This document shows positions 797-20,910 of a stretch of DNA of 43,511 bases, piece after piece. The position numbers were made by a program, and so were the translations under genes. Location of the stretch: assembly GCA_043819135.1 (NCBI GenBank), contig JBDRFG010000146.1, forward strand, positions 1 to 43,511, read 5' to 3'. A model generated the notes under the pieces. It was not told the origin of the DNA and ran no database searches. It saw only the letters and a list, made by a program, of their open reading frames with translations. Source of the stretch: Candidatus Eiseniibacteriota bacterium (GTDB lineage: Bacteria > Joyebacterota > Joyebacteria > Joyebacterales > Joyebacteraceae). Position 1 is the first letter of the stretch. The number at the start of each line of letters is the position of its first letter.

Positions 797-812
797 CGGA
801 CGGAGGGTAGCG

Positions 813-1046: not shown

Positions 1047-1085
1047 GCCAGCCGACCATCACCGTCCCCGGAGACCATCAATAGA

Positions 1086-3225: not shown

Positions 3226-3254
3226 GACCGTCCTCCTTGAAGGGAGAAGACCGG

Positions 3255-3767: not shown

Positions 3768-3811
3768 CTCGCAGGCGGGTCCGGTGACTTGCATCAGAAC
3801 GGAAGGTGCGC

Positions 3812-4447: not shown

Positions 4448-4467
4448 CCAGCGTGTCGGAGGCGGGT

Positions 4468-5859
4468 ATGGCAACCAAGGAAAGAACAGCACGAGAGACC
4501 GTTCGGCTGGCGGCTGCCGAACGGATCCCGCCCCAGGCCATCGACGCCGAGGTAGCCGTTATCGGCGCGATGCTCCTGGACACGGCGGCCGTCGGGGCGG
4601 TCAGCGAGATCCTCGACGACACCGCGTTCTACAAGGGCGCCCACAAGAAGATCTTCAGGGCCGTGATCGACCTCTTCTCCAAGGAAGAGGCCGTCGATCT
4701 CGTCACTGTGACCCAGGAACTCAAGCGGCAGAAGGTGCTGGACGATGTGGGAGGGGCCGCCTACCTGTCGCAGCTTCTGGGAAGCGTGGCGACGACCGCG
4801 AACGTGCGGCACCACGCGAAGATCGTGCTCGAGAAGGCGATCCTCCGCCGGCTGATAAGCGTCGCGACTGAAGTCGTGCAGGAAGCGTACGACGCGGGCA
4901 GCGAGGCGGCCGACATCCTCGACCGCGCCGAGCACGTCATCTTCGAGATCGCTCAGCAGCGCGTCCACCGCGATTTCGTGCCCATGCGGGAGATCCTCAA
5001 GCACAGTTTCGAGGTGATCCAGGAACTCTACGACAAGAAACAGCACGTCACGGGCATTCCGTCCGGATTCAACGACCTCGACGCGCTGACGTCAGGCTTC
5101 CAGAAGGCCGACCTGGTCGTCATCGCCGGACGGCCGTCGATGGGGAAGACGGCCTTCGCCCTCAACGTGGCGGCGCACGCCTCGATCGACGGCGGCACCC
5201 CGACGGCCATCTTCAGCCTGGAGATGGGGAAGGAGCAGCTGGTCCAGCGCATGCTGTGCTGCGAGGCTCACGTCGACGCGCACAAGCTGAGGACAGGCTA
5301 CCTCGCCGACAAGCACTGGTCGAGCCTGACGACGGCGGCCGGACTCCTGTCCGAGTCGGCTATCTTCATCGACGACACGCCCTCGATGAACGTGCTCGAA
5401 ATGCGCTCGAAGGCGAGACGTCTTAAGGCAGAGGCCGACATCGGACTCGTCATCGTCGACTACCTGCAGTTGATGCAAGGGCTGGGCAGGCCCGAGAACC
5501 GGCAGCAGGAGATATCCGAGATCTCTCGCTCGCTCAAGGCGCTCGCGAAGGAGCTCGAAGTTCCGGTGCTGGCGCTGTCGCAGCTGTCGCGTGCGGTCGA
5601 ATCGCGAGGCGGCGACCGCAGGCCGATCCTCTCGGACTTGAGGGAGTCTGGCGCCATCGAACAGGACGCGGACGTCGTGATGTTCATCTATCGGGCCGAG
5701 CAGTACGAGCGCACGCCCGAGAACATCGGCCGTGCCGAGGTCATCATCGGCAAGCAGAGAAACGGTCCTACGGGAACCGTGCACCTGTCATTTCAGTCCG
5801 AGTGCACGCGGTTCGACAACCTCAGCATGAGGGCCGAGGAGACCTTTGAGGAACTCTAG
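4468..5859 (+). CDS. dnaB: Replicative DNA helicase
   Basis: PPQAIDAE..VIG, GRPSMGKT (Walker A), FSLEM, VDYLQL, LSQLSR, SDLRESGAIEQDAD and KQRNGPTG. Normal length, no intein. Confidence 0.98.
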   Translation: MATKERTARETVRLAAAERIPPQAIDAEVAVIGAMLLDTAAVGAVSEILDDTAFYKGAHKKIFRAVIDLFSKEEAVDLVTVTQELKRQKVLDDVGGAAYLSQLLGSVATTANVRHHAKIVLEKAILRRLISVATEVVQEAYDAGSEAADILDRAEHVIFEIAQQRVHRDFVPMREILKHSFEVIQELYDKKQHVTGIPSGFNDLDALTSGFQKADLVVIAGRPSMGKTAFALNVAAHASIDGGTPTAIFSLEMGKEQLVQRMLCCEAHVDAHKLRTGYLADKHWSSLTTAAGLLSESAIFIDDTPSMNVLEMRSKARRLKAEADIGLVIVDYLQLMQGLGRPENRQQEISEISRSLKALAKELEVPVLALSQLSRAVESRGGDRRPILSDLRESGAIEQDADVVMFIYRAEQYERTPENIGRAEVIIGKQRNGPTGTVHLSFQSECTRFDNLSMRAEETFEEL

Positions 5860-6679
5860 TTCTATCCCTGAACCCGCGGTCGCTCACAGGGGGGCAGGCC
5901 CGTTCGGCAGCCTCGGACACGTCGCCATCGAGGTCGTAACCGAGGTGGGATTCGCGGGCATGCTGTTCTGGCGCTCCATGCTGTCGCTGCGGAAGCTCGG
6001 CCGCTCAATGCCGCTCGTCCTCGAGCAGGCCCGGCGCATCGGAATCGAGTCGTTGCCTCTCGTGATCATTACGTCGGTCTTCACGGGAGCCGTGACGGCG
6101 GTTCAGGCCGCCTACCAGCTCAAGGACTTCGTACCCAAGATCTACATGGGCACGGCCATCTACAAGTCGGTTGTCATCGAACTCGGTCCCGTGCTGACGG
6201 CGCTCGTCGTCGGCGGGCGCGTCAGCGCGTCGATCGCCGCCGAGCTTGGGAGCATGCGTGTCACCGAGCAGATCGATGCGATGGACGCCATGGCGATCGA
6301 TCCGGTCAGATACCTCACGATGCCCCGCATCGTGGCGGCGCTCGTGATGCTGCCCGTGCTGACGGTCTTCGCGGACATACTGGCCATCGGCGGCGGGTTC
6401 TTCGTCGCCAATGCGTCGCTCGGTCTCTCGCCGAAGATCTTCATCCAGGGAATGAAGTTGTTCTTTCTCCCTCAGGACGTGTTCGGCGGGCTCATCAAGG
6501 CTTTCGTGTTCGGCGGCATCATCTCGCTGATGGGCTGCTCTGCGGGCTTAAGGACCGTCGGCGGCGCCGTCGGTGTGGGCACCGCGGCGACGAGGGCCGT
6601 CGTCACGAGCTGCGTGCTCATACTTGTGAGCGACTACATCCTGGCAGTCCTTCTGTTCCAGATCATCTTCGGCGCGTAG
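5846..6679 (+). CDS. mlaE: MlaE-family ABC transporter permease
   Basis: ELGPVLTALVVGGRV, AAELGSMRVTEQIDAMDAMAIDPVRYL and GGAVGVGTAATRAVV motifs. Start codon uncertain (TTG). Confidence 0.93.
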   Translation: MRNSSSIPEPAVAHRGAGPFGSLGHVAIEVVTEVGFAGMLFWRSMLSLRKLGRSMPLVLEQARRIGIESLPLVIITSVFTGAVTAVQAAYQLKDFVPKIYMGTAIYKSVVIELGPVLTALVVGGRVSASIAAELGSMRVTEQIDAMDAMAIDPVRYLTMPRIVAALVMLPVLTVFADILAIGGGFFVANASLGLSPKIFIQGMKLFFLPQDVFGGLIKAFVFGGIISLMGCSAGLRTVGGAVGVGTAATRAVVTSCVLILVSDYILAVLLFQIIFGA

Positions 6680-6705
6680 CAGGCCGGCTGCCCGCGGAGT
6701 TGCGA

Positions 6706-7551
6706 ATGACGGATCGACCCGACAGAGGCATGACCGCAGGACCCGGCGGCGCTACGCCCGCGAGGCCCGTCATCGAAGTGCGCGACCTCTGGAAGTCGTT
6801 CGGGGATCTCGAGGTCCTGCGCGGCGTGGACCTGACCGTCCTCGAAGGCGAGACGATGGTGGTTCTTGGGGCTTCCGGATGCGGGAAGAGCGTGCTTCTC
6901 AAACACGTGATCGGCTTGATGAAGCCGGATCGAGGCTCGATAGTCATCGAGGGCCGCGAGATTACGAAGCTGGGATCGCGGGAACTCAAGGATCTCAGAA
7001 TGACCTTCGGCATGGTCTTCCAGGGCGCCGCGCTCTTCGATTCGATGACGGTCGGTGAGAACGTCGGCCTGCCGCTCAAGGAGCACAGGGGCATCAGGGG
7101 CGTCGAGCTTGCGGACATCGTGGAGACCAAGCTGCGAATGGTGGGTATGGCGGGGGTGTCGCACCAGCGGCCGTCCCAGATCTCCGGCGGCATGAAGAAG
7201 CGCGTGGCGCTCGCGCGTGCCATCGCTCTCGACCCGGACATCATCCTCTATGACGAGCCAACCACCGGACTCGACCCGATCATGGCCGAACAGATCAATC
7301 AGCTTATCAGGGCGCTGCAGCGCAAGGTCAACGCGACTTCGATCGTCGTCACGCACGACCTGCACAGCGCCAGATTCACTGGTGACAACATCGCCTTGAT
7401 GCACGAGGGACGCATCGAGTTCGTGGGCACTCTGGACGAGCTCAAGTGCAGCGACAACACTGCCGTGAGGACCTTCCTGGCGCGCGGGCGCGTCCCGGTG
7501 CCGGGATCGTCCGCGGACGACAGACCGGTCGACCCGGAAGTGTTCGCGTAG
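6706..7551 (+). CDS. mlaF: MlaF-family ABC transporter ATP-binding protein
   Basis: GASGCGKS, FQGAALFDS, ISGGMKKRVALARA, LYDEPTTGLDPI and VTHD motifs; between mlaE and mlaD. Confidence 0.93.
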   Translation: MTDRPDRGMTAGPGGATPARPVIEVRDLWKSFGDLEVLRGVDLTVLEGETMVVLGASGCGKSVLLKHVIGLMKPDRGSIVIEGREITKLGSRELKDLRMTFGMVFQGAALFDSMTVGENVGLPLKEHRGIRGVELADIVETKLRMVGMAGVSHQRPSQISGGMKKRVALARAIALDPDIILYDEPTTGLDPIMAEQINQLIRALQRKVNATSIVVTHDLHSARFTGDNIALMHEGRIEFVGTLDELKCSDNTAVRTFLARGRVPVPGSSADDRPVDPEVFA

Positions 7552-7634
7552 CAGGAGCGATCGACCACCGGGCGCCGCCGACCGCGCGCCGCCCCTCCAA
7601 AGCCAGGGCCACAACGGAATCCAGGGGGAAGGCA

Positions 7635-8501
7635 ATGACCGAACACGGTAACGAGGTGAGGGTGGGAGTCACCCTGACGATCGCGGGTGTGTTGCTCGTC
7701 GCCGGCATCCTGTGGCTGGGCGGCTTCAGTTTTGGTGAGAGCAGGTACACATTCAACATTGTGTTCGACGAGGTAGCCGGGCTTGTTGCGGGCGACAAGG
7801 TGACTGTCGCGGGTCTGAACGCAGGGGAGATCATCTCTTTGTCGCTCGCGCCTCTCGGCAAGGTCGTGGCCGAGGTCGAGGTGGACGATTACATCAAGAT
7901 CCCCGTTGATTCGCGCATCTCGATCGCCAGCTACGGCCTCATCGGGGCGAAGGTCATATCGATCCGACCCGGAGGAAGCGACGTCTTCATCACGCCCGGC
8001 TCCGTCAATCAGGGCCAGTACGAGAAGGGGCTGGGCGACGTCGTGCACGAGATGGGCGAGGCCCTGGCCGACATCCGGGTCGTCATGAAGTCGGCCGACG
8101 AGATCCTCACCGACGAGGAAGGCAAGGAGCTCGTCAAAGACGCACTCGTCAACGCGAACGCCGCCTCGTCCGACCTCAAGCACGCAACCGCCGACCTCCG
8201 CGTGATGGCCACCGAACTAAGGACCTTCGTGAGCGCGAAGAGAGATCCGGCGGGCGAGGCCATCGATGCGATGGAGGGCGCCATTCTCGGGTTCTCGGAG
8301 GTGACAGGCGAGCTCAAGATCATTTCGGCGTCGCTCGACTCGATCGTCCGTCGAGTCGAGGGTGGAGAGGGGACGCTGGGCAAGCTCATCAACGAGGACC
8401 AGGTCCACGACGAGTTCCTCGCCGCCATCAAGGAGGTCAGGGAACTCGTCGCGACGATACGCGACAATCCCAACAGCTTCGTCAAGTTCTCGCTGTTCTA
8501 G
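7635..8501 (+). CDS. mlaD: MCE-domain protein with helical C-terminus (MlaD family)
   Basis: N-terminal TM helix, F..VAGL..GDKVTVAG...G, GLIGAK.I.I.PG, coiled region, GEGTLGKLIN and C-terminal NP.SFVKFSLF. Confidence 0.9.
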   Translation: MTEHGNEVRVGVTLTIAGVLLVAGILWLGGFSFGESRYTFNIVFDEVAGLVAGDKVTVAGLNAGEIISLSLAPLGKVVAEVEVDDYIKIPVDSRISIASYGLIGAKVISIRPGGSDVFITPGSVNQGQYEKGLGDVVHEMGEALADIRVVMKSADEILTDEEGKELVKDALVNANAASSDLKHATADLRVMATELRTFVSAKRDPAGEAIDAMEGAILGFSEVTGELKIISASLDSIVRRVEGGEGTLGKLINEDQVHDEFLAAIKEVRELVATIRDNPNSFVKFSLF

Positions 8502-8595
8502 CGCGTGTCGCGGCGGGTTTGTGCCGCCTCGGTCCGGCGTGGTTCGAGATGGAGGGCGGGGACAAACGCACCGCCCGTCACAGGAGGAGGGGAGG

Positions 8596-10065
8596 ATGGG
8601 GGGAAAGAAGAAGAGCGTGTTCTTCTGCAGCGGCTGCGGCCACGAGTCGCCGAGGTGGCTGGGGAAGTGCCCCGGCTGCGGTGAGTGGAACACGTTCGTC
8701 GAGACTGAGGTGCAGAAGAACCGTCCCTTGGGCAGGTCGGCGACGGCGGCGCGTGAGGGTCCTGTTGCGCTGCCCGACATTACGGCGGACGCCTCGGAGC
8801 GGATGCCGACCGGGATATCCGAGTTCGACCGGACTCTGGGCGGAGGCATAGTGCCCGGCGCGGTCATGCTGGTCGGAGGTGATCCGGGCATAGGCAAGTC
8901 CACGCTGCTCCTCCAGGCCAGCGACGCCGTGGCGCGGAGCGGCGAGACGGTGCTCTACGTCACCGGCGAGGAGTCACGCTCGCAGATACGACTGCGGGCC
9001 TCACGGCTCGGAGTCGATTCCGGGCTCATCAGCGTCCTCACGGAGACGGACGTGTCGCGCGTCCTGGAAGTCGCGGCGTCCACGCAGCCGGGCATCCTCG
9101 TCCTCGATTCCATACAGACCATCTACCACGCGGAGGCCAACGGTTCGCCGGGGAGTGTGTCCCAGGTTCGTGAGTCGGCCGCCTCGCTCGTGCGGTTCGC
9201 GAAGGAGACGGGTGTCCCCGTCTTTCTCATCGGGCACGTGACCAAGCAGGGCGCGATAGCGGGTCCGAGGATCCTCGAGCACATGGTCGACACCGTGCTC
9301 TACTTCGAGGGCGACAAGCGTATGCCCTACCGCATCCTGCGCGCCGTGAAGAACCGCTACGGTTCGACGGATGAGATAGGCGTCTTCGAGATGACCGCGG
9401 GAGGCCTGGTCGAGGTCGCCGACCCATCGGGGCTCTTCGTGTCCAGGGACCTCCCCAACACCTCGGGCTCGGTCGTCATCGGTGTGGTCGAGGGCACGCG
9501 CGCTCTCATGGTGGAGATACAGGCGCTCACGGGTCTCACCAACTACGCGGTCCCGCAGCGCTCGAGCACGGGGGTGGACCGGAGAAGGCTGCCGCTCATC
9601 CTGGCGGTGCTCGAACGCAGGGGGGGCCTGAGCCTCGGCAACCGCGACATCTTCGTCAACGTCGCCGGTGGCGTCAGGGTAGAGGAGCCGGCCGCCGACC
9701 TCGGCGTGGCTCTGGCCGTTGCGTCGAGCTACTGGGACATTCCGGTGGACGAGCGAACGGCGGTCTTCGGCGAGATAGGGCTCGGCGGCGAGGTCAGGCG
9801 AGTGACGCAGGCAGGCAAGCGGGCCCAGGAGGCCTCGCGGTTGGGCTACTCGCGCATCGTCCTTCCGCGGAACGCTCTGCCGAAAGAGGAACGCCCGTAC
9901 GGCGTAGAGTTCGTCGAGGTGCGCACGCTCGGCGACGCCATGGACACACTCCTGGGGTCGCGGCGCAGCAGACGCGCGTGCGGAACCGAAGCGGCGCCGG
10001 ACGTCTCCGATAGACCGGAGGAGCCCGGGCGACGCGCGACTGCCGCGCGAACCAAGGAGGCGTGA
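8596..10065 (+). CDS. radA: DNA repair protein RadA/Sms
   Basis: C4 zinc finger CSGC..CPGC, GDPGIGKST, DSIQT, GHVTKQG.IAGP and KNRYG; strong RBS before ATG 8596. Confidence 0.97.
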   Translation: MGGKKKSVFFCSGCGHESPRWLGKCPGCGEWNTFVETEVQKNRPLGRSATAAREGPVALPDITADASERMPTGISEFDRTLGGGIVPGAVMLVGGDPGIGKSTLLLQASDAVARSGETVLYVTGEESRSQIRLRASRLGVDSGLISVLTETDVSRVLEVAASTQPGILVLDSIQTIYHAEANGSPGSVSQVRESAASLVRFAKETGVPVFLIGHVTKQGAIAGPRILEHMVDTVLYFEGDKRMPYRILRAVKNRYGSTDEIGVFEMTAGGLVEVADPSGLFVSRDLPNTSGSVVIGVVEGTRALMVEIQALTGLTNYAVPQRSSTGVDRRRLPLILAVLERRGGLSLGNRDIFVNVAGGVRVEEPAADLGVALAVASSYWDIPVDERTAVFGEIGLGGEVRRVTQAGKRAQEASRLGYSRIVLPRNALPKEERPYGVEFVEVRTLGDAMDTLLGSRRSRRACGTEAAPDVSDRPEEPGRRATAARTKEA

Positions 10066-11252
10066 CGGTGGCGAGGGTAGGCACGATCCTCGTGGCGGCG
10101 GGCTCGTCTGAGCGAATCAGCGCCATCTTCCCCAAGCAGTTCCTGCCTCTGGGACCGGATCCCATGTTCTTCCTGGCGCTCGAGAGCGTCCTTCCGCACT
10201 CCGACGAGGTGGCGATAGTCACGCTGCCCGATTTCGTCAGTACCGTGAGGGTCATACTCCGCGCCGCGGGCGCCACACAGGACCTGACCTTCAGGGGCAC
10301 GCGGATCGTCCCCGTCGTTGGGGGCGAGAGGCGGCAGGACTCCGTCGAGCGCGGCCTCGCGGTTCTCTCCCCGGACATCGACGTCGTTCTGATACACGAC
10401 GCGGCGCGGCCGTTCGCGTCGCCCGAACTGACGGAACTCGTCATCGCGGCGGCCCTGGAACACGGAGCCGCGGTGCCGGTCATCGCCGTGCCCGACACGG
10501 TGAAGCGCGTGGACGGCGACACCGTGGTGGAGACGATGGACCGCCGCACGCTGGGCCTGGCTCAGACCCCTCAGGGATTCAGGCGGGAACTCATCGAGCG
10601 GGCCTACCGCGCCCTGGAGGGCGCGGACATCACCGACGACGCCCGGGCGGTCGAGCTTCTCGGCGAGACCGTGACCATCGTGCCGGGCGAGTCCGGCAAC
10701 TTCAAGGTGACGACGCCGGTCGACCTTCAGCTCGCGTCGGTGGTCGCCAACTGCAGGCGCGGCCTGGGACCCGGCTACCGCGCGGGAACGGGAAGCGACA
10801 CGCACCGGCTGGTTGAGGGAAGAGACCTCGTCCTCTGCGGCGTGACCGTTCCGTTCGGAAAGGGACTCGCCGGCCACTCCGACGCCGACGTCGCGACGCA
10901 CGCCGTCTGTGACGCGCTTCTTGGCGCCGTCGCGGAGGCGGACATAGGTGTCCATTTCCCGCCGGGCGATCCCGACTACAAGGACATCTCGAGCCTGATT
11001 CTACTGGAGAGGGTAGCGGAGATCGTGCGCGAGAAGCGATGCAGGGTCGTCAACGTCGACGTGACCATCGTGGCAGAGGCGCCGAAGCTCGCACCGCACG
11101 TGCCGGCGATGAGGCGCACGCTCGCGGATGTTCTCGGCCTGGAGGTCGAGGCCGTCTCGGTCAAGGCCACCACCACGGAGGGCATGGGTCCTGAGGGCGA
11201 GGGCCTGGCGATATCCAGCAATGCGGTGGCCGTGGTGACCGAGCGGCCATGA
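10062..11252 (+). CDS. ispDF: Bifunctional IspD/IspF (MEP pathway)
   Basis: IspD half: VAAG..ER, GGERRQDSV, IHDAARPF, QTPQGF, TDDA. IspF half: GSDTHRL, GHSDADV..HA..DA.LGA, DIG.HFP, KATTTE. Confidence 0.96.
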   Translation: MTVARVGTILVAAGSSERISAIFPKQFLPLGPDPMFFLALESVLPHSDEVAIVTLPDFVSTVRVILRAAGATQDLTFRGTRIVPVVGGERRQDSVERGLAVLSPDIDVVLIHDAARPFASPELTELVIAAALEHGAAVPVIAVPDTVKRVDGDTVVETMDRRTLGLAQTPQGFRRELIERAYRALEGADITDDARAVELLGETVTIVPGESGNFKVTTPVDLQLASVVANCRRGLGPGYRAGTGSDTHRLVEGRDLVLCGVTVPFGKGLAGHSDADVATHAVCDALLGAVAEADIGVHFPPGDPDYKDISSLILLERVAEIVREKRCRVVNVDVTIVAEAPKLAPHVPAMRRTLADVLGLEVEAVSVKATTTEGMGPEGEGLAISSNAVAVVTERP

Positions 11253-11265
11253 CGGAGCCGATGCG

Positions 11266-12333
11266 ATGAGCGACTGCCGCTGCGCACCGAGAGACGAACA
11301 GAGCCCGCGTTCGTGCGCCACGTGCGGAGAGGGCGCCGGCGATGCGAGCGCTGGCATCCTCCACACGACATCGTCGATCACCGCGTCCGACCACCTCGAT
11401 CACCTGCTGGCCCGCTGGGCCGTCAACAGGGGCGGGCACCGCGTCGAGCCCGGCCTCCACTTACTGGGCGTGCCGGGAAAGAACTCTCCCGTCTTCGTGA
11501 CCGCGAACTACACTCTGAGTTTCGATGCTCTGAGATCGGCTCTCGACGGCGCCGATGCGTACATCCTCGTGCTGGATACGGGTGGGATCAACGTGTGGTG
11601 CGCGGCGGGCAAGGGCACATTCGGGACCGACGAACTCGTCAACAGACTCGAGTCGACCGGGCTTGGCGAGATCGTCTCGCACCGGGAACTGGTGCTTCCG
11701 CAACTGGGCGCCACTGGAGTGTCGGCGCACGAGGTGAAGAGGCGCTCGGGGTTCTCCGTCACGTACGGACCCGTACGCTCAGCGGACCTCGCCGAGTTCA
11801 TGAGGACGGGCGCCGCAACGGAAGACATGCGGAGAGTTCGCTTCGGTCTCCGGGACCGGTTCGTGCTCGTCCCCGTCGAACTCGCGCACGTGCTCCTGCC
11901 GTGCGCGTTGGCCGCCGTCGCACTGTACTTCGCCGTCGGGCCGCTGGCGGCGTGGTCCGCCATCGTCTCGCTGCTGGCGGGGGCGGTGCTCTTCCCCGTG
12001 CTGCTGCCCTGGCTCCCGACCCCCAACCTAAGCACCAAGGGGCTTGTCCTGGGAGTGGTCACGGCGCTGCCTTTCGCCGCGGCCGCGTTCTCGGGCCACG
12101 TCGCGGATCCGCTCTGGGCGCGTGTCGGGTGGCCGCTCGTGTATCTTCTGGGAATGCCACAGGTCGTGTCGTTCCTCGCGCTCAACTTCACCGGCTCGAC
12201 GACCTTCACGTCGAGGACCGGCGTCAAGCGCGAGATCATGACCTACTTCCCGTTCATGGTGTGGATGTTCGGGGCCAGTCTCGCACTCCTGATCGTGCTG
12301 TCCGTGACCCGCTTCGTGGGAGGCTCCGGATGA
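11266..12333 (+). CDS. hgcA: Mercury methylation corrinoid protein HgcA
   Basis: Diagnostic cap-helix motif GINVWCAAGKGTF (NVWCAAGK at 11590-11613), VTANY.LSFD, LPQLGATGV, GPV...D, a multi-TM C-terminus with NFTGSTTFTS..GV..E, and a following ferredoxin. Confidence 0.97.
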   Translation: MSDCRCAPRDEQSPRSCATCGEGAGDASAGILHTTSSITASDHLDHLLARWAVNRGGHRVEPGLHLLGVPGKNSPVFVTANYTLSFDALRSALDGADAYILVLDTGGINVWCAAGKGTFGTDELVNRLESTGLGEIVSHRELVLPQLGATGVSAHEVKRRSGFSVTYGPVRSADLAEFMRTGAATEDMRRVRFGLRDRFVLVPVELAHVLLPCALAAVALYFAVGPLAAWSAIVSLLAGAVLFPVLLPWLPTPNLSTKGLVLGVVTALPFAAAAFSGHVADPLWARVGWPLVYLLGMPQVVSFLALNFTGSTTFTSRTGVKREIMTYFPFMVWMFGASLALLIVLSVTRFVGGSG

Positions 12334-12632
12334 GCGACGCGTACGCGACCAACACTCTGGAGTACGACGCCACGAAGTGCTCGGGCTGCGGCATGTGCAG
12401 CACGGTCTGTCCGCACGGAGTGTTCGCTCAGACAGGCAACGTCGCCGAACTCACTCACTACGAGCGGTGCATGGAATGCGGCGCTTGCAGCCTGAATTGC
12501 CCGACGGGCGCCATCGTGGTGGAGAGCGGCGTCGGCTGCGCGTCGGCGCTCATGCTCGCGGCCCTGCAAGGCAAGAGCGACGACGAGGCGTGCTGCGGTC
12601 CCAATGACGGCGGCGGCTCCTGCTGCGGCTGA
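12330..12632 (+). CDS. hgcB: Mercury methylation 2[4Fe-4S] ferredoxin HgcB
   Basis: 100 aa, ATGA overlap with the hgcA stop; CSGCGMCSTVCPH and CMECGACSLNCP cluster motifs, GVGCA, and C-terminal CC pairs (ACCG...SCCG). Confidence 0.96.
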   Translation: MSDAYATNTLEYDATKCSGCGMCSTVCPHGVFAQTGNVAELTHYERCMECGACSLNCPTGAIVVESGVGCASALMLAALQGKSDDEACCGPNDGGGSCCG

Positions 12633-12636
12633 GGCG

Positions 12637-12669
12637 GGCCGCGTCTGCGAGCGAGTTTGTGGCGCGGCC
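12637..12669 (+). other. GC-rich stem-loop directly after the hgcB UGA
   Basis: GGCCGCGTC (12637-45) pairs with GGCGCGGCC (12661-69) with one G-U; G-U-rich inner extension; no U-tract. Confidence 0.6.
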
Positions 12670-12771
12670 GATAGTCGAGGATATTCTTCGTCAGACCAGG
12701 GCTCGTGCAGCGGCCTTTCGCCGTCTCGGACAACCGATTCATGCGGGAAATCCCTCAGATAAGGAGTCCAC

Positions 12772-14592
12772 GTGGACGACAGGCGGGACAGAACACTGGT
12801 GCTCACATCGGCTCTTGTCGGGCTGGTCGTCTCGGTCGGACTCCTGCTTGCGGTACTGGACGTAAACGACCTTCCGCTCCTCTGTCGTGACTCGGCGGTC
12901 ATGTTCGCGGGTGCGCTTGTCGTGGTCGGGCTTCCGGCCGCGATCCTGTTCGCGACAGCGGGCGGCTGTCTGGGGCTGCTGCTGCGCCGCCGCGAGGCGT
13001 CCGCGGCCCTCGTCTCACTGGCGGTTCTTGCGCTGATGGTAGCGCTTGTCATAGCGCTCGCGATGAGAAGCGGAGCCGCTCTCTTCCTGAAGAGACACAT
13101 GCCCGTCGCGGTCCTTCTCATGGGGGCTGCGCTTTCCGCGCTTGGCGCCGCGCGCATCCGCCGGTCGCGAGTTCTGCTCTCGGGAGGGGCGGCGCTCGTT
13201 CTGGCCCTTGTCATCGCTTTCGGCGGAGGTGTTGCGCTCTCGAATCCCGAGTTGGCGGCGGATGAGGTTCCCCGCGCGGCCCCCGCACACGGAGGGAAGA
13301 TCCTGCTTCTCGGGGTCGACGGGATGTGCTGGGAGACCCTGAACAGGTGGGAGCCGCACGCGACGGCCGACTACGAATGGTTCCGGCAGCGCGGCTACAT
13401 CGGCCCGCTCGAGACCGTCTTTCCGCCGAAGTCGCCGAGGATCTGGTCCTCGATGGCGACCGGTGTGACGCCCGAGGACCACGGCGTGATCTCGTACACC
13501 TCCACGGTCATCACAGGCGTCAGGCGTCCGCTTCCTCAGGTGCCCCGCCTGGAGGGAGCGTTCCTGTGGTTGAGGGCTCTCGAGCGCTTCGGGCTCCTGC
13601 ACCGGCGTCCGGTCTCGAGCGCGGACCTCAGGCGCCCCGCGTTCTGGGAGATAATGACCGATCCCGCGCTGTCGTCCGACGTCATTGGCTGGTGGGCGAC
13701 GTGGCCGGCGACCCACCCGAACGGTCGCCTCGTCAGTGACAAGTTCTACTTCTGGCGAGACCAGAGGATGACGGGGGGCACGGCCGCACCGCCGTCCTCT
13801 CTCGTCTATCCGCCGGGGCTCGAGGCGCAGCTGTCGGAGCTACGCGTCTCACCGAACGACATGTCCGCCGACGAGGTGCTGGATCTGATCGACATCCCGC
13901 GCGAGGAGGCGGAGACGCTCTCCGGGCTGCCTTATCAGCATCACGAAGTGTTGAGCGAACTCCCGCTCGCGTTCACAATGGACGAGACGTACGCGGCCGT
14001 GACCGAGAGGTTCTTGACGGACCGGACCGGTTCGCGCATCACGGTGACCTACCTGAGAGGGGTGGACCTCTTGAGCCACGCCTCGATGCACTTCTCGAAT
14101 CTCTATCCCGAGTCCGGCGCCACCGACGGTGAGAGGGCCAGGTACGGCGAACTCATCACCAGGTACTACGGGCGTGTGTTCGCGCAGCTGCGGAAGTTCG
14201 TGGAGGCCGCCGGTGACGACGTTCTCGTGCTCGTGGTCTCGGACCACGGGTTCGAGCGGCTCAACGACAGGCTGTACGGCCATGAAGATACGCCTCCCGG
14301 CGTGATCATGGCGATCGGCGGAGGGGCGGGGGAGCTTACGGAGAGGCTCGACGCCACCGTCTACGACGTGGCGCCGACAATGCTGTGGCTCGCGGGGATG
14401 CCCGCCGCGGAGGACATGCCCGGGCGGCCGCTCGCGGAGCTCTTCCCGGAGATCGCCCGAACCGCGCCTCCATCGCCGCGCATCCGGACGTACGGTCCCA
14501 GGTCGATGGACGCATACGTCAGCTCCGGCGGGGGCGATGTCGCGGACGAGCGCATGCTGGAGCTCATGCGCAGCCTGGGGTACATTGACTGA
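12772..14592 (+). CDS. Membrane-anchored alkaline phosphatase superfamily (NPP/phosphodiesterase-like) protein
   Basis: About 5 N-terminal TM helices, then LLGVDG, PPKSPRIWSSMATG (Ser at nucleophile position), GVDLLSH, VSDHG, YDVAPTML and C-terminal MRSLGYID. Confidence 0.85.
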   Translation: MDDRRDRTLVLTSALVGLVVSVGLLLAVLDVNDLPLLCRDSAVMFAGALVVVGLPAAILFATAGGCLGLLLRRREASAALVSLAVLALMVALVIALAMRSGAALFLKRHMPVAVLLMGAALSALGAARIRRSRVLLSGGAALVLALVIAFGGGVALSNPELAADEVPRAAPAHGGKILLLGVDGMCWETLNRWEPHATADYEWFRQRGYIGPLETVFPPKSPRIWSSMATGVTPEDHGVISYTSTVITGVRRPLPQVPRLEGAFLWLRALERFGLLHRRPVSSADLRRPAFWEIMTDPALSSDVIGWWATWPATHPNGRLVSDKFYFWRDQRMTGGTAAPPSSLVYPPGLEAQLSELRVSPNDMSADEVLDLIDIPREEAETLSGLPYQHHEVLSELPLAFTMDETYAAVTERFLTDRTGSRITVTYLRGVDLLSHASMHFSNLYPESGATDGERARYGELITRYYGRVFAQLRKFVEAAGDDVLVLVVSDHGFERLNDRLYGHEDTPPGVIMAIGGGAGELTERLDATVYDVAPTMLWLAGMPAAEDMPGRPLAELFPEIARTAPPSPRIRTYGPRSMDAYVSSGGGDVADERMLELMRSLGYID

Positions 14593-14642
14593 CGCGGCGG
14601 ACCGGTTCGCCGCGTGATGAAACGACCACCGAGGAGTCGAAG

Positions 14643-16082
14643 ATGCCAAGTGGTGTCAGGGTGAGATTCGCGCCCAGCCCGACGGGCCACCTTCACGTCG
14701 GCGGCGCCAGGACCGCGCTCTTCAACTGGCTCTTCGCCAGGGGGGCGGGCGGGGAGTTCGTGCTGAGGGTCGAGGACACCGACCGCGCGCGTTCCACGGA
14801 TGAGTCCGAGCGCGCCGTGCTTGAGGATCTCAAGTGGCTCGGCCTGACGTGGGACGAGGGGCCCGGCGCCGACGGCGACCACGGGCCGTACCGTCAATCG
14901 GAGCGTCTCGAGATCTACCAGGCGCACGCGGAGCGGCTTCTCTCGCAGGGCAGGGCATTTCGGTGCTACTGCTCGGATGACGAACTAGAGGCCAGGCGGA
15001 AGGACGCGCTCGCCGCGGGCGGTGTCCCGCAGTACGACGGAACGTGTCGAGACCTGAACGACGAGCAGCGCGCGGCGCACGAGCGGGCCGGTCGAGAGCC
15101 CGTCGTCCGGATGCGCGGGCCCGTAAGTGACATCACGGTCTCCGATCTGGTGCGGGGCGACATCGAGTTCAAGAAGGAAATGCTGGGTGACTTCATCATC
15201 CTGAGAAGCGACGAGCGGCCCACCTACAACTTTGCTGTCGTGGTCGACGACGCACTCATGGCGATCACCCACGTCATACGCGCGGAGGAGCATCTTCCCA
15301 ACACCATGCGTCAGGTGTTGCTCTACGAGGCGCTCGGCTACCAGCTTCCCGTTTTCGCACACGTGTCGCTCATCGTGGACAAGGACCGCAGTAAGCTCTC
15401 AAAGCGACGGGGCGCGACCTCGATTGCCGAGTTCAGAGAGCAGGGGTACCTTCCAGGCGGGCTCATAAACTACCTGGCGCTCCTGGGCTGGTCTCCGCCC
15501 GACGGCGAGGAAGTGATGTCCCTCGCTGAGCTTACCGAGAAATTCGACCTGAGCCGCGTATCTACGAGCCCTGCTGCCTTCGATGAAGACAAGCTGGACT
15601 GGGTCAACGCCCACCACCTGAGAGAAGAACCGCTGGCGGACGTGGCCGTGCTCGCGATGCGCTTCGCCGAAACGCACGGGCTCTTCGAGCCGGACTTCGA
15701 GCGCTTCGAGGCGATGGTCGACCTGGCGCGCGAGGGGTTGTCGCGTCTGTGCGACCTTCCGGACGCGATATCGTTCTTCTTCGACGACCACCTCGAGACG
15801 GAGGATGACGCGCGGGAGTGGCTGTCCCGGGCCGACGCGAAGCAGCTGATGGCGTCGCTCGTCAAGCGGTTCGAGGAGAGCGACGACGAGATGGACGCGA
15901 GCCTGTTCAAGGCGGCGCTCAAGAGCGCCGGGAACGACGCGGGCGTGAAGGGGAAGGAGCTCTTCATGCCTGTGAGGTCCGCTCTGACGGGGCGCACCCA
16001 CGGTCCCGCGCTGGGAGAGGTGGCGGCCGTTCTCGGGCGGGAGCGCGTGATCGAGAGGTTGAAGCGAGCAGCGGGGGAATAG
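14643..16082 (+). CDS. gltX: Glutamate--tRNA ligase
   Basis: RFAPSPTGHLHVGG (HIGH), LRVEDTD, YRQSER, CYC, ITHVIRAEEH and KLSKR (KMSKS); anticodon-binding domain present. Confidence 0.97.
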   Translation: MPSGVRVRFAPSPTGHLHVGGARTALFNWLFARGAGGEFVLRVEDTDRARSTDESERAVLEDLKWLGLTWDEGPGADGDHGPYRQSERLEIYQAHAERLLSQGRAFRCYCSDDELEARRKDALAAGGVPQYDGTCRDLNDEQRAAHERAGREPVVRMRGPVSDITVSDLVRGDIEFKKEMLGDFIILRSDERPTYNFAVVVDDALMAITHVIRAEEHLPNTMRQVLLYEALGYQLPVFAHVSLIVDKDRSKLSKRRGATSIAEFREQGYLPGGLINYLALLGWSPPDGEEVMSLAELTEKFDLSRVSTSPAAFDEDKLDWVNAHHLREEPLADVAVLAMRFAETHGLFEPDFERFEAMVDLAREGLSRLCDLPDAISFFFDDHLETEDDAREWLSRADAKQLMASLVKRFEESDDEMDASLFKAALKSAGNDAGVKGKELFMPVRSALTGRTHGPALGEVAAVLGRERVIERLKRAAGE

Positions 16083-16150
16083 GGTCGAGCGGCCGGCGGG
16101 CCGGCAGGAGGCTCGACGGAGCGGCAGGCCGATCTTGAGGAGGAGCTGAC

Positions 16151-17203
16151 GTGCGGATAGCGGTTCTCTACGGCGGGACGTCCGCCGAACGCGATGTCTC
16201 GCTGGTGTCCGGGCGATCCGTGGGGTTCGCCCTGGCCGAGCGTGGTCACAACGTGCTCCTGGTCGACCCGGCGGAAGGGGATTCGCCGATCGGCGCGTGG
16301 GAGGCCGCCGCCGCGGCGGTCATCAACGCAGACCCGCCGGCCATCCGGCACGAGACGGGCAGCGCCATCGCCGCCGTTCAGGGTGAGGCCGTTCAGTCAG
16401 CGGACGTCGTGTTCATAATGCTCCACGGGGGGACCGGTGAGGACGGGACCGTGCAGGGGCTGCTCGAATTGGCGGGCAAGAAATACACGGGTTCGGGTGT
16501 GCTCGCGTCCGCGCTGGCGATGGACAAGCGCGCCTCCAAGGTGGTTCTGGAGGAAGTCTACGTCCCGACGCCCCAGTGGCGCGTGGTGACGTTCGAGAGG
16601 AAACTCCCGCCGGACGCCCGCGGAGGTTCACCGATGTTCCCGGCCGATGTTGAAATCGAGGAGGCCGCCGGAGCCGTGAACGAACTCGGGGGCTACCCCG
16701 TGGTCGTGAAACCGAATGACCAGGGGTCGACGGTCGGGCTGACGGTCGTGAAGGAGGAGCGGCAGCTGGTCCCCGCGATCAAACTGGCAGGCGAGTACTC
16801 GCCCCACGTGCTTCTCGAAACCTACATCCCCGGTCGGGAACTCACCGTGGCCGTGCTGGGAGGTGAAGCGCTTCCCGTCGTGGAGATAGCTCCGAAGAGC
16901 GGGCTCTACGACTACGAGAGCAAGTACGGCAAGAACATGAGCGTCTACACCTGCCCGGCGGAGATCCCCGCGCTCCTGACTGACCAGCTGAAGGCGAGCG
17001 CCCTCACAGCGTTCGCGGCGCTCGGCTGCCGCGGCTACGCGCGCATCGACTACCGGCTCTCGCCTGCCGGAAAGCCGTTCTGCCTCGAGGCCAACACGGT
17101 CCCCGGCATGACAGAGTTAAGCCTGGTGCCGATGGCGGCAGCAGCCGTCGGGATAACGTTCGGCGAACTGGTCGAGCGAATAGCGGAAAACGCCTTGAGA
17201 TAG
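16151..17203 (+). CDS. ddl: D-alanine--D-alanine ligase
   Basis: YGGTSAERDVSLVSG, LHGGTGEDGTVQG, SALAMDK, KP...GST.G, YDYESKY omega loop and EANTVPG. Confidence 0.96.
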   Translation: MRIAVLYGGTSAERDVSLVSGRSVGFALAERGHNVLLVDPAEGDSPIGAWEAAAAAVINADPPAIRHETGSAIAAVQGEAVQSADVVFIMLHGGTGEDGTVQGLLELAGKKYTGSGVLASALAMDKRASKVVLEEVYVPTPQWRVVTFERKLPPDARGGSPMFPADVEIEEAAGAVNELGGYPVVVKPNDQGSTVGLTVVKEERQLVPAIKLAGEYSPHVLLETYIPGRELTVAVLGGEALPVVEIAPKSGLYDYESKYGKNMSVYTCPAEIPALLTDQLKASALTAFAALGCRGYARIDYRLSPAGKPFCLEANTVPGMTELSLVPMAAAAVGITFGELVERIAENALR

Positions 17204-17212
17204 GAGATTCTC

Positions 17213-17228
17213 TGGCACAACTGATGCA
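17213..17228 (+). promoter_or_regulatory. Putative sigma54 (RpoN) -24/-12 promoter of the EPS/exosortase operon
   Basis: TGGCACAACTGATGCA has GG and GC exactly 10 nt apart and differs from TGGCAC-N5-TTGCW at one position. It faces the EPS operon. Confidence 0.65.
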
Positions 17229-17319
17229 CTCCTGCCCATCTCAGAAGCTGTAAAATGCGAGACTTGGGCAGGGCTTGTCTGGTGATCCGACGCGTGGATC
17301 ACCGCCCCACCAGTCTTGC

Positions 17320-17332
17320 TAATTCGTTGACA
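17320..17332 (-). promoter_or_regulatory. IHF-like binding site
   Basis: Reverse complement TGTCAACGAATTA matches WATCAANNNNTTR with one mismatch, within an AT-rich patch. Confidence 0.45.
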
Positions 17333-17374
17333 TAAAACATGTTAGGCCAAGGCCGTGCCTCGGACGCCCCGGGC

Positions 17375-17399
17375 AGGCTGTCGGGAATGGCAACAGTCT
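17375..17399. promoter_or_regulatory. Imperfect palindrome AGGCTGT-N11-ACAGTCT (enhancer/UAS-like)
   Basis: TGT at 17379-81 and ACA at 17393-95 with an 11-nt spacer; arms match 6/7. Resembles sites bound by Fis-type HTH enhancer-binding proteins. Confidence 0.4.
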
Positions 17400-17411
17400 C
17401 GACAAACCCTG

Positions 17412-17450
17412 TTGACCACGTTCCGGCCAGCTAGTAGCTTCTTGCTGGCC
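17412..17450 (+). promoter_or_regulatory. Sigma70-like promoter overlapped by an inverted repeat
   Basis: TTGACC (17412-17), 17-nt spacer, TAGCTT (17435-40). The GGCCAGC/GCTGGCC inverted repeat (17425-31 / 17444-50) brackets the -10 element. Confidence 0.4.
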
Positions 17451-17592
17451 TATCTTCCTCAGAATGTCGTCTGAGGGGGGTGAGAGCCGCAATATGCACA
17501 TTGGAAGGGGCGTGTTTGAGAGCCGGAGTGCCGTCGCGCGAGCGGTGTCCGCCGCGGCGGGGTGTGTACGCCGGATTCGGGGAGGTCGGCCC

Positions 17593-18594
17593 ATGAGAAA
17601 CGGACGAGCGATGCGAACGAGCCTTGTCGTGTTTGCGGCCCTGGCGCTGCTGTCGGCAGCTGCCGTCGCCCAGACTGTAGCCGAGTACAAGATAGGTCAG
17701 GGTGATGCCCTGAGCATCTCCGTGTGGAGGCACCCGGAGCTTGAGCGGACCGTCGTCGTGAGGTCCAACGGCCGCGTGACCTTCCCGCCCATCGGGGACG
17801 TCACCGCGGAGGGGCTCATGCCTTCGGACCTGTCGAGGGAGATCATGCAGCGTCTCAGGGACTACACGCGTGAGACTACTCAGGTCACCGTGACGGTCGC
17901 CCAGTTCAACAGCAGGGCCGTCTTCCTGACGGGGCAGGTCGTCGGCCCCGGCAGGTACAGTTTCGAAGCGATACCGGATCTTCTGCAGTTGTTGAGTTCT
18001 GCCGGCGGACCGCTTCCCAGCGCGGACCTTTCGCAGGTTTCGATCATTCGCGCGACGCCGACCGGACCGTCTGTCATCACGATAGATGTGGGTTCGTACA
18101 TGCGTGGGCAAGCCACCCAGCCGCTGCCGACGCTTGAGCCCGGTGACACGATCGAGATCCCGTCGATCCTGGGGACGTCCGCCGCGGGCGCACAGGGGAT
18201 GGTCTTCATCTTCGGAGAGGTAGGATCGCCGGGCGCGTATCCGGCCGGGAGCGGCACCGACCTGCTCCAGCTTATCGCCGTGGCCGGGGGCACGACGCCC
18301 GGCGCGAATCTCAACGAGGTTTCGGTGGTCATGGACGGGGGGAACGGCCAGGTTGTGGCCAGGGTCGACCTCAAGGACGTCATTGAGAACGGAACGGCGA
18401 CTCCGTTCATGCTCGCTGCCGGCGACCGCGTGATCGTTCCGGCGACCGACGCGACTCTGGCCGGCCAGATACTGGGCGGGATAGGATCGGTGTTCGGATA
18501 CACGAGCGATCTGATGTCTTCGTACCTTCTGTATCTCACGCTGGACCGTGAGGTGGATGCGAAGAGCACGAGGGATGTGGCAGCGACTCAGTAG
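17593..18594 (+). CDS. Polysaccharide export protein (OPX/Wza family, Poly_export + SLBB domains)
   Basis: Signal peptide; YKIGQGD.L.I.VW..PEL...V.VR.NG..TFP.IG; two V..GxV..PG.Y SLBB repeats; GGAGG before ATG 17593. Confidence 0.92.
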   Translation: MRNGRAMRTSLVVFAALALLSAAAVAQTVAEYKIGQGDALSISVWRHPELERTVVVRSNGRVTFPPIGDVTAEGLMPSDLSREIMQRLRDYTRETTQVTVTVAQFNSRAVFLTGQVVGPGRYSFEAIPDLLQLLSSAGGPLPSADLSQVSIIRATPTGPSVITIDVGSYMRGQATQPLPTLEPGDTIEIPSILGTSAAGAQGMVFIFGEVGSPGAYPAGSGTDLLQLIAVAGGTTPGANLNEVSVVMDGGNGQVVARVDLKDVIENGTATPFMLAAGDRVIVPATDATLAGQILGGIGSVFGYTSDLMSSYLLYLTLDREVDAKSTRDVAATQ

Positions 18595-18660
18595 GCGCCA
18601 TCAGCATCGCTGCCGCAGGAGACGTCGAACCAGGGAACGGCTGGTGTACTCGGGGGTGAA

Positions 18661-20910
18661 ATGACTGAGCAGGCGACGAAGCAAGTGGACATCAGGAGCT
18701 ATCTGAAGGCGGTGTGGAGGAGGAAGTGGCTGCTTCTCATTCCCGTCGTCGTTGCCGGCGTGGCCGGCGGCATCACGGCGCAGATGCTGCCGCCGATCTA
18801 CGAGGCCAAGAGCACGGTCGTCGTGAGGATGTCCGACAGGCTGTCGGAGCCGCTGGCCAGGCTGGTGGGCAGATCCCCGATGGAGGAGCAGCTGTCTCGA
18901 CTGCAGCAGAAAGCCAAGAGCACCTCCTTCCTCGTCGAGCTCGTCAGGACGCTCGGTATGGCGAACGACGAGGATATCCAGCAGTGGGCGCGGAGCCAGA
19001 ATCGCAAGGACCCGTCCGTCCCCGTTGCCGAACTGGCCGAGTCCCGGGCCGTCTCGTACCTCCAGCCGAGGATCGCCGTCGTCAGAACGTCCTCGACCGG
19101 CTTTCAGGTCGTCGCGCGCGACTTCGAACCCGAGCGAGCGACGCTTCTGGCTCAGCACATCACCAATGCGTTCGTCAGCGCGTCGAACCGCGAGCAGTTG
19201 GAGGAGATAAGGTCCATACACGACTTCAGCGTCGAGCAGCTCGTCATATACAAGCAGAAGCTCGACGATGCCGAGAGGCAGCTGCGGGAGTTCCAGGAGG
19301 GCAGGATCACCAGCGGCCCGATCGCCAATCCGGTCACGGCGCAGAACGTCAACCGCGCCGACGTGCTGATGAGCCAGGCGCAGGTGGAGGGGAGCGACGC
19401 CGCGGCTGCTCTCGCGAACAGGCGGGGCACGCTACGCTCCCTTGCGTCGGCCGAGTACGACGCCCTCGCGGGCCTGACGTCCGCGGCGTTGGATTACGAC
19501 TCTGACCAGCTGGTCTCGCTCGAGCGTGAGGTGGCGTCCGTGCTCGTCAGGTCTTCCGCAGACGGACCGGAGATAAGCTCCCTCTACGTGAGCATCGCCG
19601 AGAAGAAGACCCAGCTTCGTGACGACGCGAGGAGACTCGCGCGCGACAGCTTCGGAGGGCTCTCGATCGGTGTTGTCAACGCCTACGCGGAGCTCAAGAT
19701 CGCGCAGGTCGAGGATGCGATGATCTCCGAGAGGCTGCGCATTCTCAGGCGCTTCATGTGGGACTACACGCAGGGCAGGGTGAGCGTTCCCGAAGAGGAG
19801 ATGGAGCTCACGCGGCTCAGGCAAGAGGTAGAGAACAACAGGGCGCTCTACGAGGCGTTCCTCGAGCAGTCGGCGGCGGGACAGATCACCGAGGCCCTCG
19901 AGGCCGCGCGCGCCGGCGGGCGCTTTGAGATCATCGAACCCCCCGTGCGTCCCACGGGGCCGGTCGCGCCGGACAAGCCGATGATCATCCTTCTGTCACT
20001 CTTCGGCGGTCTGGTCATCGGTCTGGGCATCGTGCTCGCGACCGAACAGGGCGACACGTCGTTCAAGGACATCGCGGATATCGAGGCCACGCTGGGCGTT
20101 CCCGTGCTGGCGACCGTTCCCGAGGCGGACGTGTTCCACTCGATCGGATCGAGGGAGAAGCAGCTGCGCCGCGGCGGGAGAAAGGCCACCGGTGGCGACT
20201 CGATGCTGCTCCGCTACATGGTCCGTGAGACGCCCATCTCGTTCGAGTTCCGACGACTGACCAGGAAGCTCTCGAAGATGAACGGCGGTGACATCCCGAA
20301 ATCGATACTCGTCACCAGCTCCAACAGGGGAGAGGGCAAGACCACCGTCGCGGCCTGTCTGGCCATCACGCTCGCCAAGCACTACGGTCGCCGCGTAGCA
20401 CTGGTCGACTGTGACCTCCGGAAGCCGCGAGCGCACATGCTGATGGAGGTCGCGCAGCGTCCGGGCCTCGCCGATGCACTTCAGCGCGGTAACCTGCTGG
20501 GCAGCGACATCCGCGCCACGTCGCTGGACACCCTCTTCGTCGTGCCGAGTGGAACGAGACGGGACGAGCCGACGTGGGTTCTCGAATCACTCCCCAACTC
20601 CCGTGTGATGGCCGAGCTGATGGGTAGTTTCGATCACGTGATCTTCGATACCGCACCCAACGTCGCGGTGCCGGACGCTCTGCTTCTTTCGAGCGAGGTC
20701 GACGGGGTCATCATGGTTCTGAGAGCTGGTGCGACGCCTCGCGAGGTCATCCTGCGCGGGGTCCAGCTGCAGCTCGACGAGAAGGACAACATGCTGGGTC
20801 TTGTCGTCAACAATCTGCAGCGCGTGCTGCCCTACTACTACGACTACAGGTACTACGGCTACGGAGCGTCCGAGTCTGAGCATGAATCGAAAGACGAATC
20901 GGAAGAGTGA
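18661..20910 (+). CDS. wzc: Polysaccharide co-polymerase / BY-kinase (Wzc family)
   Basis: Two TM helices flanking a coiled periplasmic region; IIEPP..P..P..P; SSNRGEGKTT, VDCDLRKP, IFDTAP; Tyr cluster YYYDYRYYGYG. Confidence 0.93.
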   Translation: MTEQATKQVDIRSYLKAVWRRKWLLLIPVVVAGVAGGITAQMLPPIYEAKSTVVVRMSDRLSEPLARLVGRSPMEEQLSRLQQKAKSTSFLVELVRTLGMANDEDIQQWARSQNRKDPSVPVAELAESRAVSYLQPRIAVVRTSSTGFQVVARDFEPERATLLAQHITNAFVSASNREQLEEIRSIHDFSVEQLVIYKQKLDDAERQLREFQEGRITSGPIANPVTAQNVNRADVLMSQAQVEGSDAAAALANRRGTLRSLASAEYDALAGLTSAALDYDSDQLVSLEREVASVLVRSSADGPEISSLYVSIAEKKTQLRDDARRLARDSFGGLSIGVVNAYAELKIAQVEDAMISERLRILRRFMWDYTQGRVSVPEEEMELTRLRQEVENNRALYEAFLEQSAAGQITEALEAARAGGRFEIIEPPVRPTGPVAPDKPMIILLSLFGGLVIGLGIVLATEQGDTSFKDIADIEATLGVPVLATVPEADVFHSIGSREKQLRRGGRKATGGDSMLLRYMVRETPISFEFRRLTRKLSKMNGGDIPKSILVTSSNRGEGKTTVAACLAITLAKHYGRRVALVDCDLRKPRAHMLMEVAQRPGLADALQRGNLLGSDIRATSLDTLFVVPSGTRRDEPTWVLESLPNSRVMAELMGSFDHVIFDTAPNVAVPDALLLSSEVDGVIMVLRAGATPREVILRGVQLQLDEKDNMLGLVVNNLQRVLPYYYDYRYYGYGASESEHESKDESEE

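Follow-up and report, generated by a model that had tools for sequence, protein, structure and literature searches.

Why do the mercury-methylation genes hgcA and hgcB lie directly behind ispDF in a housekeeping operon, and what became of them there? The question is raised by contig JBDRFG010000146.1 of the source genome, termed G000, which was analysed over its whole 43,511 nucleotides (nt; the window, whose forward-strand positions are used throughout) and carries radA, an ispDF fusion, hgcA, hgcB, a PF01663 phosphodiesterase-family gene and gltX in this order. We consider it fairly probable that hgcAB is an ancestral core-operon passenger behind ispDF, likely read from radA-ispDF, and that up to four sister lineages have lost it through separate deletions. 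The novelty lies in hgcAB losses resolved to their breakpoints among sister species, which is more valuable than the regulatory claim of an original prediction, made from the letters alone, that the position makes the host a constitutive methylator.

Gene identities were set by NCBIfam curated cut-offs, and the 37 open reading frames (ORFs) of the window were scanned. HgcA scored 410.7 bits with the HgcA model (cut-off 275), 200 with the fused HgcAB-like model (285) and 74 with the CdhE model (306). A fused or CdhE-type identity was rejected, as both models remained under their cut-offs and the HgcA model was well over its own. The cap-helix motif of HgcA proteins, N(V/I)WCA(A/G)GK with a cobalt-binding cysteine, is present as NVWCAAGK at residue 109. 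The C-terminal half is hydrophobic, with four segments in a crude hydropathy scan where five helices are expected, and the model was matched over positions 2–324 of 325. The N-terminal extension is cysteine-rich (11266–11355). HgcB has CxxCxxCxxxCP motifs at residues 17 and 47, Cys70 and the C-terminal end SCCG; from their positions, we infer that Cys70 and the terminal pair correspond to C73, C94 and C95 of ND132 (Pseudodesulfovibrio mercurii). In trees that held no CdhD/E rows, HgcA nested among unfused HgcA of Chloroflexota, Methanomicrobia and Desulfitobacteriaceae. The predicted genuine, unfused pair was thereby confirmed in its tree placement, as it was by curated cut-offs, passed by both proteins, and by motifs, all intact. 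As judged from its sequence, the pair is intact and canonical, and is predicted to methylate mercury.

In the accessible part of PMC11588087, HgcA is a cobamide carrier that is methylated by S-adenosylmethionine (SAM) and transfers the methyl group to Hg(II), HgcB giving electrons; a role of Cys93 in the cap helix is also described. HgcA of G000, loaded with scavenged cobamide, would likewise transfer a methyl group from SAM to Hg(II), and HgcB would carry the electrons. MetK, for SAM supply, and five B12-binding proteins above cut-off are present in G000, and the cobamide is likely scavenged by a route not found here. A search for MerB gave no match, nor did its control. Among HgcA proteins at large, at least two cysteines occur in the first 35 residues of 17 of the 18 closest and 18 of 97 more distant ones. 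The variants P0006 and P0022 have NVWCAAGE and NVWCAAGR, the terminal lysine of the cap helix being replaced.

The HgcA model matched 9 of 31 genomes of the family; seven of the matches exceeded the cut-off, and the other two were truncated by contig ends. Within the genus, hgcA lies directly behind ispDF in four of eight members (G000, G002, G003 and G007), and the four others (G001, G004, G005 and G006) have no hgcAB at the ispDF site. The ispDF-hgcA spacer is 14 nt in G002, G003 and G007. The order in G007 is ispDF-hgcA-hgcB-gltX with spacings of 14, −4 and 8 nt; the hgcB-to-gltX link of G002 rests on a 14-nt contig overlap, and the contig of G003 ends inside hgcA. The hgc-less genomes are 90–98% complete with the ispDF junction assembled, and neither a match to the HgcA model nor an HgcB match above cut-off was found anywhere in them.

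Three of these junctions retain pieces of the missing genes or of the hgcA spacer. In G005, 12 hgcA codons are joined to the last 29 hgcB codons, followed by the PF01663 gene. In G006, about 14 hgcA codons run in frame into the last codons of hgcB, and a new stop has arisen; the right half is the final ~26 nt of the hgcB region (blastn E 2e-5 versus G007). An equivalent of the ispDF-hgcA spacer persists in G006 and in G004, where it is as in G007 at 12 of 12 bases and runs into the gltX start without hgcA sequence. Only the hgcB-gltX spacer is left in G001. The junction ends were scored against the cassette ends of G007 with 2000 shuffles, and 11 control junctions of other genera with 500 shuffles. 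G005 scored 52 on the left and 129 on the right (best shuffles 32 and 38), and G006 scored 54 and 37 (28 and 29). G004 scored 24 on the left (best shuffle 20), its right end not being significant (119/2000 shuffles), and the right end of G001 gave 4/2000 shuffles.

Over the 29 codons of the hgcB tail, G005 and G007 differ at 13 bases, 10 of them at third positions, with 10 silent and 2 replacement codons, when 6.4–9.2 replacements are expected under neutrality on the G005 branch alone (P 0.03 to 0.001). Because the tail was kept under coding selection, the G005 deletion appears recent and separate from that of G006. The stop of the G005 hgcA remnant overlaps the ATG (ATGA) of a 27-residue cysteine-rich peptide from the hgcB tail (L129:6636–6733), which might still be translated.

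The rpoB tree, in which each branch of the genus was starred, was ((G000,G002),(G006,(G005,(G004,(G001,G007))))). G003, which has no rpoB, was unresolved beside G006 on flanking genes. Grouping the four hgc-less genomes as one clade, a group named from gene content, was rejected by the approximately unbiased test (p 4e-6). The synonymous divergence (dS) of hgcA compared with its flanks was 0.34 versus 0.29–0.38 for G000–G002, 0.35 versus 0.32–0.34 for G003–G007, and 0.48 versus 0.55–0.97 for G000–G007. The GC content at third codon positions (GC3) of hgcAB is 0.85–0.86, like that of its neighbours. A recent horizontal arrival was rejected, since GC3 and dS match those of the neighbours. The ratio of nonsynonymous to synonymous divergence of hgcA is ~0.2–0.3; on such comparisons, the retained copies are under purifying selection, yet dispensable.

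With high confidence, at least two separate deletions occurred; at least three are likely, and the balance leans towards four. It is proposed that hgcAB was present behind ispDF in the ancestor of the genus and inherited vertically. Deletions would proceed through short matches at the cassette ends, either the TGAC repeat of the spacer or the similar Asp-Gly/Ser-Ser-Cys codons with which hgcA starts and hgcB ends. They would survive with the ispDF stop and the ribosome-binding site of the next gene left whole, so that repeated short-homology deletions would spare the flanking genes.

All genes from gmk through the polysaccharide cluster are on the + strand. The gaps are 94 nt (mlaD-radA), −4 (radA-ispDF, letters GTGA), 13 (ispDF-hgcA), −4 (hgcA-hgcB, ATGA), 139 (hgcB-PF01663 gene), 50 (PF01663 gene-gltX) and 68 nt (gltX-ddl). 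The two overlaps and the 13 nt between the ispDF stop (11252) and the hgcA ATG (11266) are as had been described. The accompanying claim of no intergenic room holds 5' of hgcA and hgcB; it fails after hgcB, with 139 nt, and before gltX, with 50 nt and a hairpin. The nearest promoter room for radA-ispDF-hgcAB is the gap 5' of radA. Because of the gaps of −4, 13 and −4 nt, a single radA-ispDF-hgcAB message is likely, and transcription and translation would run on from ispDF into hgcAB, which has no regulator of its own. Read-through into gltX in G000 has about even chances because of the 139-nt gap and the hairpin without a U tract. Terminator-like sites were as many as chance predicts (7 against 7.0 expected).

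It is unlikely that a single constitutive transcript locks hgcAB to essential genes as far as gltX, an arrangement that would bind the pair to the cell and yield a steady methylator. The single strand and short gaps from gmk to ddl fit this view, as do the spacings of G007 and the scarcity of U-tract terminator-like sites between the ispDF end and gltX (one, inside hgcA, at chance level), but half of the genus lost hgcAB from the site, hence it is not locked in, and the gap and hairpin precede gltX in G000. Moreover, radA operons can be stress-regulated, as in the Bacillus clpC operon. The transcript level of hgcA in ND132 also predicts the methylation rate poorly, according to the accessible part of bioRxiv 10.1101/2022.10.17.512643. 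Constitutive expression as such is given slightly less than an even chance, because of stress-controlled radA operons, the seven ArsR-family genes elsewhere in G000 and a possible internal promoter.

Internal promoters are common in operons. A promoter of hgcAB's own in the 3' part of ispDF, or distant control by an ArsR-family protein, would mean that position says little on expression. Either is improbable, although seven ArsR-family matches and acr3 are present in G000, all on other contigs: at the ispDF 3' end of the hgc+ genomes, 10/18 four-fold sites are variable versus 6/13 to 12/18 elsewhere, a comparison of low power, and the 13–14 nt spacer is kept in four genomes. ArsR control is demonstrated in ND132, but that ArsR adjoins hgcAB upstream (bioRxiv 10.1101/2022.10.17.512643, accessible part). 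Regulator, arsenic and mobile-element families were absent from the 37 window ORFs, of which 5 to 7 were unmatched per library; the predicted lack of a nearby ArsR-type regulator or mobile-element gene thus held. No Rfam match was found in the window.

For comparison, the nearest same-strand ORF upstream of hgcA was taken at 71 of 80 loci, 7 being too short and L051 and L064 excluded as family-type. These ORFs comprised 16 ArsR, 18 MazE/AbrB-like, 1 MarR, 1 extracytoplasmic function (ECF) sigma factor, 8 arsenic-type genes (including 3 methyltransferases read as ArsM-like) and 27 others or without match. As this crude choice passes over divergent genes, the 36 regulators are a lower bound. The supposed rarity of regulator-free hgcA was not borne out, 35 of the 71 loci having no regulator directly upstream. 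IspD or IspF was upstream at none of the 71. Regulator-free hgcA is common, and ispDF-coupled hgcA was not seen outside the genus.

Several observations weigh against repeated deletion of an inherited, functional operon passenger. In a careful protein tree (34 rows), the genus-type clade alone was starred, and neither a single family clade nor the order within the genus was resolved; a quick tree (118 rows, 3 near-duplicates dropped) had the family HgcA as one clade with a Shimodaira–Hasegawa (SH) support of 94. The dS of hgcB, estimated from just 100 codons, is ~1.8-fold that of the genome. The left end of G001 gave 642/2000 shuffles, and its junction alone is indistinguishable from a never-filled site. 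Among the 22 control tests, one (right end of G020) exceeded each of its 500 shuffles, with a margin of a single point. The scars were not seen in independent runs. A promoter scan of 1–18700 returned no site and is hence uninformative. CobS was not found in any of the eight genus genomes, nor a PF01497 binding protein in G000. Finally, the tree needs a minimum of three label changes, not five, one loss with a regain by G007 being shorter if the scars are ignored, and G005 and G006 have their left breaks at nearly the same point of hgcA, so that the G006 scar could be an older one that has eroded.

The last two points also fit one or two old, eroded deletions followed by a regain of hgcAB in G007 through homologous recombination via the conserved flanks, the site being a gain-and-loss polymorphism. 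The flanks would permit such exchange, and the dS between G006 and G007 is uneven over the locus (0.29 in ispDF, 0.79 in ddl), whereas that between G001 and G007 is flat at 0.12–0.14 across rpoB, radA, ispDF and gltX. A regain is quite improbable, considering also that the G007–G003 distance in hgcA matches that in ispDF, that the hgcB tail of G005 was under coding selection after the split from G007, and that G004 keeps the hgcA spacer exactly, without hgcA sequence.

That the scars, or the window junction, are assembly artefacts is hardly credible: every genome is a binned assembly and the hgc-less joint is absent from the listed contigs of independent runs, but the filled junction is present in four genomes and bridged by run X1, four assemblies show four different empty junctions, the G006 remnant has acquired replacements and a stop codon, as real decay would bring, and the matches at the ends amount to just a few bases. 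The ispDF-hgcA junction has the same layout in G002, G003 and G007. One contig of X1 covers 9283–11982 (~89% alike) and another 12316–16936 (96%), no single contig spanning all. Since these three genomes and X1 show the joint, the window junction is not chimeric, which settles the continuity check that had been called for. Four runs, chosen for window sequence, were compared with the G007 locus, and no listed joint skipped hgcAB.

Probable repeated deletion from an operon site raises the question of how the site behaves elsewhere in the family. The ispDF end was looked at in 22 of the 23 genomes belonging to other genera (all but G045), and 21 were scorable, the contig of G008 ending there. 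gltX directly follows ispDF in 11 of the 21, as in G001 and G004, in agreement with the prediction that hgcAB and one more gene interrupt this adjacency. In the remaining 10, other genes intervene, among them rhomboid, flavodoxin-like, GDSL-like and aldo-keto reductase genes. Throughout the family, the junction thus serves as a landing site, an insertion hot spot, and as it takes other inserts in 10/21 genomes, the embedding of hgcAB is in itself ordinary. The PF01663 gene, with four N-terminal hydrophobic segments, has an orthologue only in G005 among 41 genomes. It is a separate passenger, because G005 has it without hgcAB, and G002 and G007 have hgcAB without it. PF01663 matches number 10–25 per genome in 25/25 family genomes, often in tandem, and 0–2 in 16 outside genomes.

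At the same junction in G023, the last ispDF codons stand in about three tandem copies before an inserted flavodoxin-like gene (L153:3760–3890). In three genus-g5 genomes, IspDF carries an in-frame Cys/Gly-rich tail that ends like GGSCG and whose stop overlaps the gltX start. This tail is similar to the end of HgcB and might represent an older scar, or else bind metal; two of the tails were scored against shuffles as HgcB ends, and neither beat them. Of two metagenome pattern scans for further junctions, one was empty and the other returned 2 matches, both unrelated to ispDF.

Two other hgcAB sites occur in the family, behind a glyoxalase-family gene (G010, G016, G021 and G013) and behind corA (G046). 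Family scans found no adjacent regulator at any of the three sites. Of the glyoxalase-family gene, which precedes hgcA in other genera, G000 has a match to the last third alone (C34:52755–52880, L204). No convincing hgcAB remnant was found there, only low-complexity matches, nor at seven hgc-less or differently arranged loci behind this gene (one of the seven queries being in the wrong frame).

Which lineage is the host? Four of 120 listed GltX relatives are labelled 'Candidatus Eisenbacteria' (62–82% identity). According to the accessible part of PMC9727166, Joyebacterota genomes were classed as Eisenbacteriota or unclassified, and the hgcA-bearing records L051 and L064 are Ca. Joyebacterota in its supplement. 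Several of their neighbour genes are 51–75% identical to G000 genes, partly in the same order. As compared by sequence, the host is likely a member of Joyebacterota (VGIX01, Ca. Effluviviacota); no 16S gene was found in the G000 assembly. The term 'hgc' is absent from the main texts of PMC9727166, PMC11323493 and PMC13271369, 'hgcA' is absent from the supplements of PMC9727166 and PMC13271369, and no literature link of hgcA to Eisenbacteria, VGIX01, Joyebacter or Effluviviacota was found. The phylum is likely unreported as an hgcAB carrier, and the suspicion of a little-studied lineage was justified, no hgcAB report for Ca. Joyebacterota having been found.

It is conceivable, at somewhat less than even chances, that hgcAB toggles between presence and absence at one housekeeping-operon site, with four independent breakpoint-resolved deletions among eight species of a phylum hitherto unreported as methylators, the retained copies being under purifying selection and expressed with core genes without a metal sensor. 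If true, contrasts between hgc+ and hgc− sisters in habitat and co-lost genes could lead to the native, non-mercury job of HgcAB. Collinear sisters that differ in hgcAB at one site form a natural comparison for what selects it, bearing on two questions, the cause of its patchiness and its native purpose. For the 'parallel loss' account of this patchiness, the scars supply evidence that is read directly in the sequence. With 9/31 species carrying hgcA, a likely unreported group of marine-sediment anaerobes joins the candidate methylators, and genus-level taxonomy cannot predict methylation, half of the genus having lost hgcAB.

The features are collected in the table. A database start of hgcA 30 codons downstream was rejected, as the MSDxC-type start and the 13–14 nt spacer are kept in G002, G003 and G007. 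A second GltX-like gene, on another contig of G000, is 45% identical to that of the window. Elsewhere in the window, a small ORF between gmk and coaBC (813–1046) has a weak RNA polymerase omega-like match (E 0.003, below cut-off). Two family-less ORFs between udg and dnaB (3237–4447) are kept in G005 and G006 (64–71%) and unmatched in loci of other genera. A large exopolysaccharide cluster (17464–42056) includes a PEP-CTERM exosortase, a heparinase-like gene and many glycosyltransferases.

Table. Features of the hgcAB locus and related IspDF tails.
Feature	Position	Strand	Basis or remark
radA (sms)	8596..10065	+	TIGR00416 561 bits; GGAGG before start; start conserved in 4 sister genomes
ispDF fusion	10062..11252	+	TIGR00453 and TIGR00151 above cut-off; 4-nt overlap with radA
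ispDF-hgcA spacer, 13 nt	11253..11265	+	ribosome-binding-like GGAG
hgcA 5' end, left half of G005/G006 scar	11255..11296	+	blastn E 9e-10 and 1e-8 versus the window
hgcA, 355 residues	11266..12333	+	NF040863 410.7 bits, cut-off 275
hgcB, 100 residues	12330..12632	+	NF040864 106.9 bits, cut-off 99
hgcB 3' end, right half of G005 scar	12544..12634	+	blastn E 2e-19 versus the window
Intergenic stretch, 139 nt, room for promoter/terminator	12633..12771	+	folding z −0.36, not above shuffles
PF01663 phosphodiesterase-family gene, membrane-anchored	12772..14592	+	family match
GC-rich hairpin, 10 bp, without U tract	14592..14615	+	z −2.2, 4/200 shuffles
gltX	14643..16082	+	TIGR00464 542 bits
D-Ala-D-Ala ligase (ddl)	16151..17203	+	conserved neighbour 3' of gltX
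Cys/Gly-rich IspDF tails	L148:6262-6322 (G017); L144:5620-5731 (G011); L235:2677-2737 (G042)		sequence

The order radA-ispD-ispF-gltX is known from Bacillus and others; the same core order is found here, with ispDF fused and the junction an insertion hot spot in the family. No report of hgcAB beside ispD or gltX was found in the open-access literature. As in ND132, hgcA and hgcB are separate tandem genes with the cap-helix cysteine motif, two ferredoxin motifs and a terminal cysteine pair. Unlike in ND132, there is no ArsR upstream in G000; an arsR-like gene is absent from the position directly upstream and ispDF stands there instead, and HgcA has a cysteine-rich N-terminal extension. In the accessible parts of the sources, a conserved regulator lies upstream of hgcAB in 112 genomes (PMC7438021), arsR accompanies 14 and a prlF/mazE-like gene 8 of 31 cultured methylators (PMC10349881), many genomes in both have no such regulator, and earlier work cited by PMC7438021 had already inferred that hgcA is expressed constitutively. 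Compared with regulator-preceded hgcAB, the gene pair is the same and the three sites of the family have no adjacent regulator. No report of hgcAB deletion remnants was found in the open-access literature; a Desulfovibrio synteny study outside it may describe losses. Vertical descent with extensive parallel loss of hgc was argued from deep trees in PMC10083202, in whose accessible part 'pseudogene' does not occur. As there, patchiness arises by loss; unlike there, the losses fall within one genus and are seen as breakpoints and remnants.

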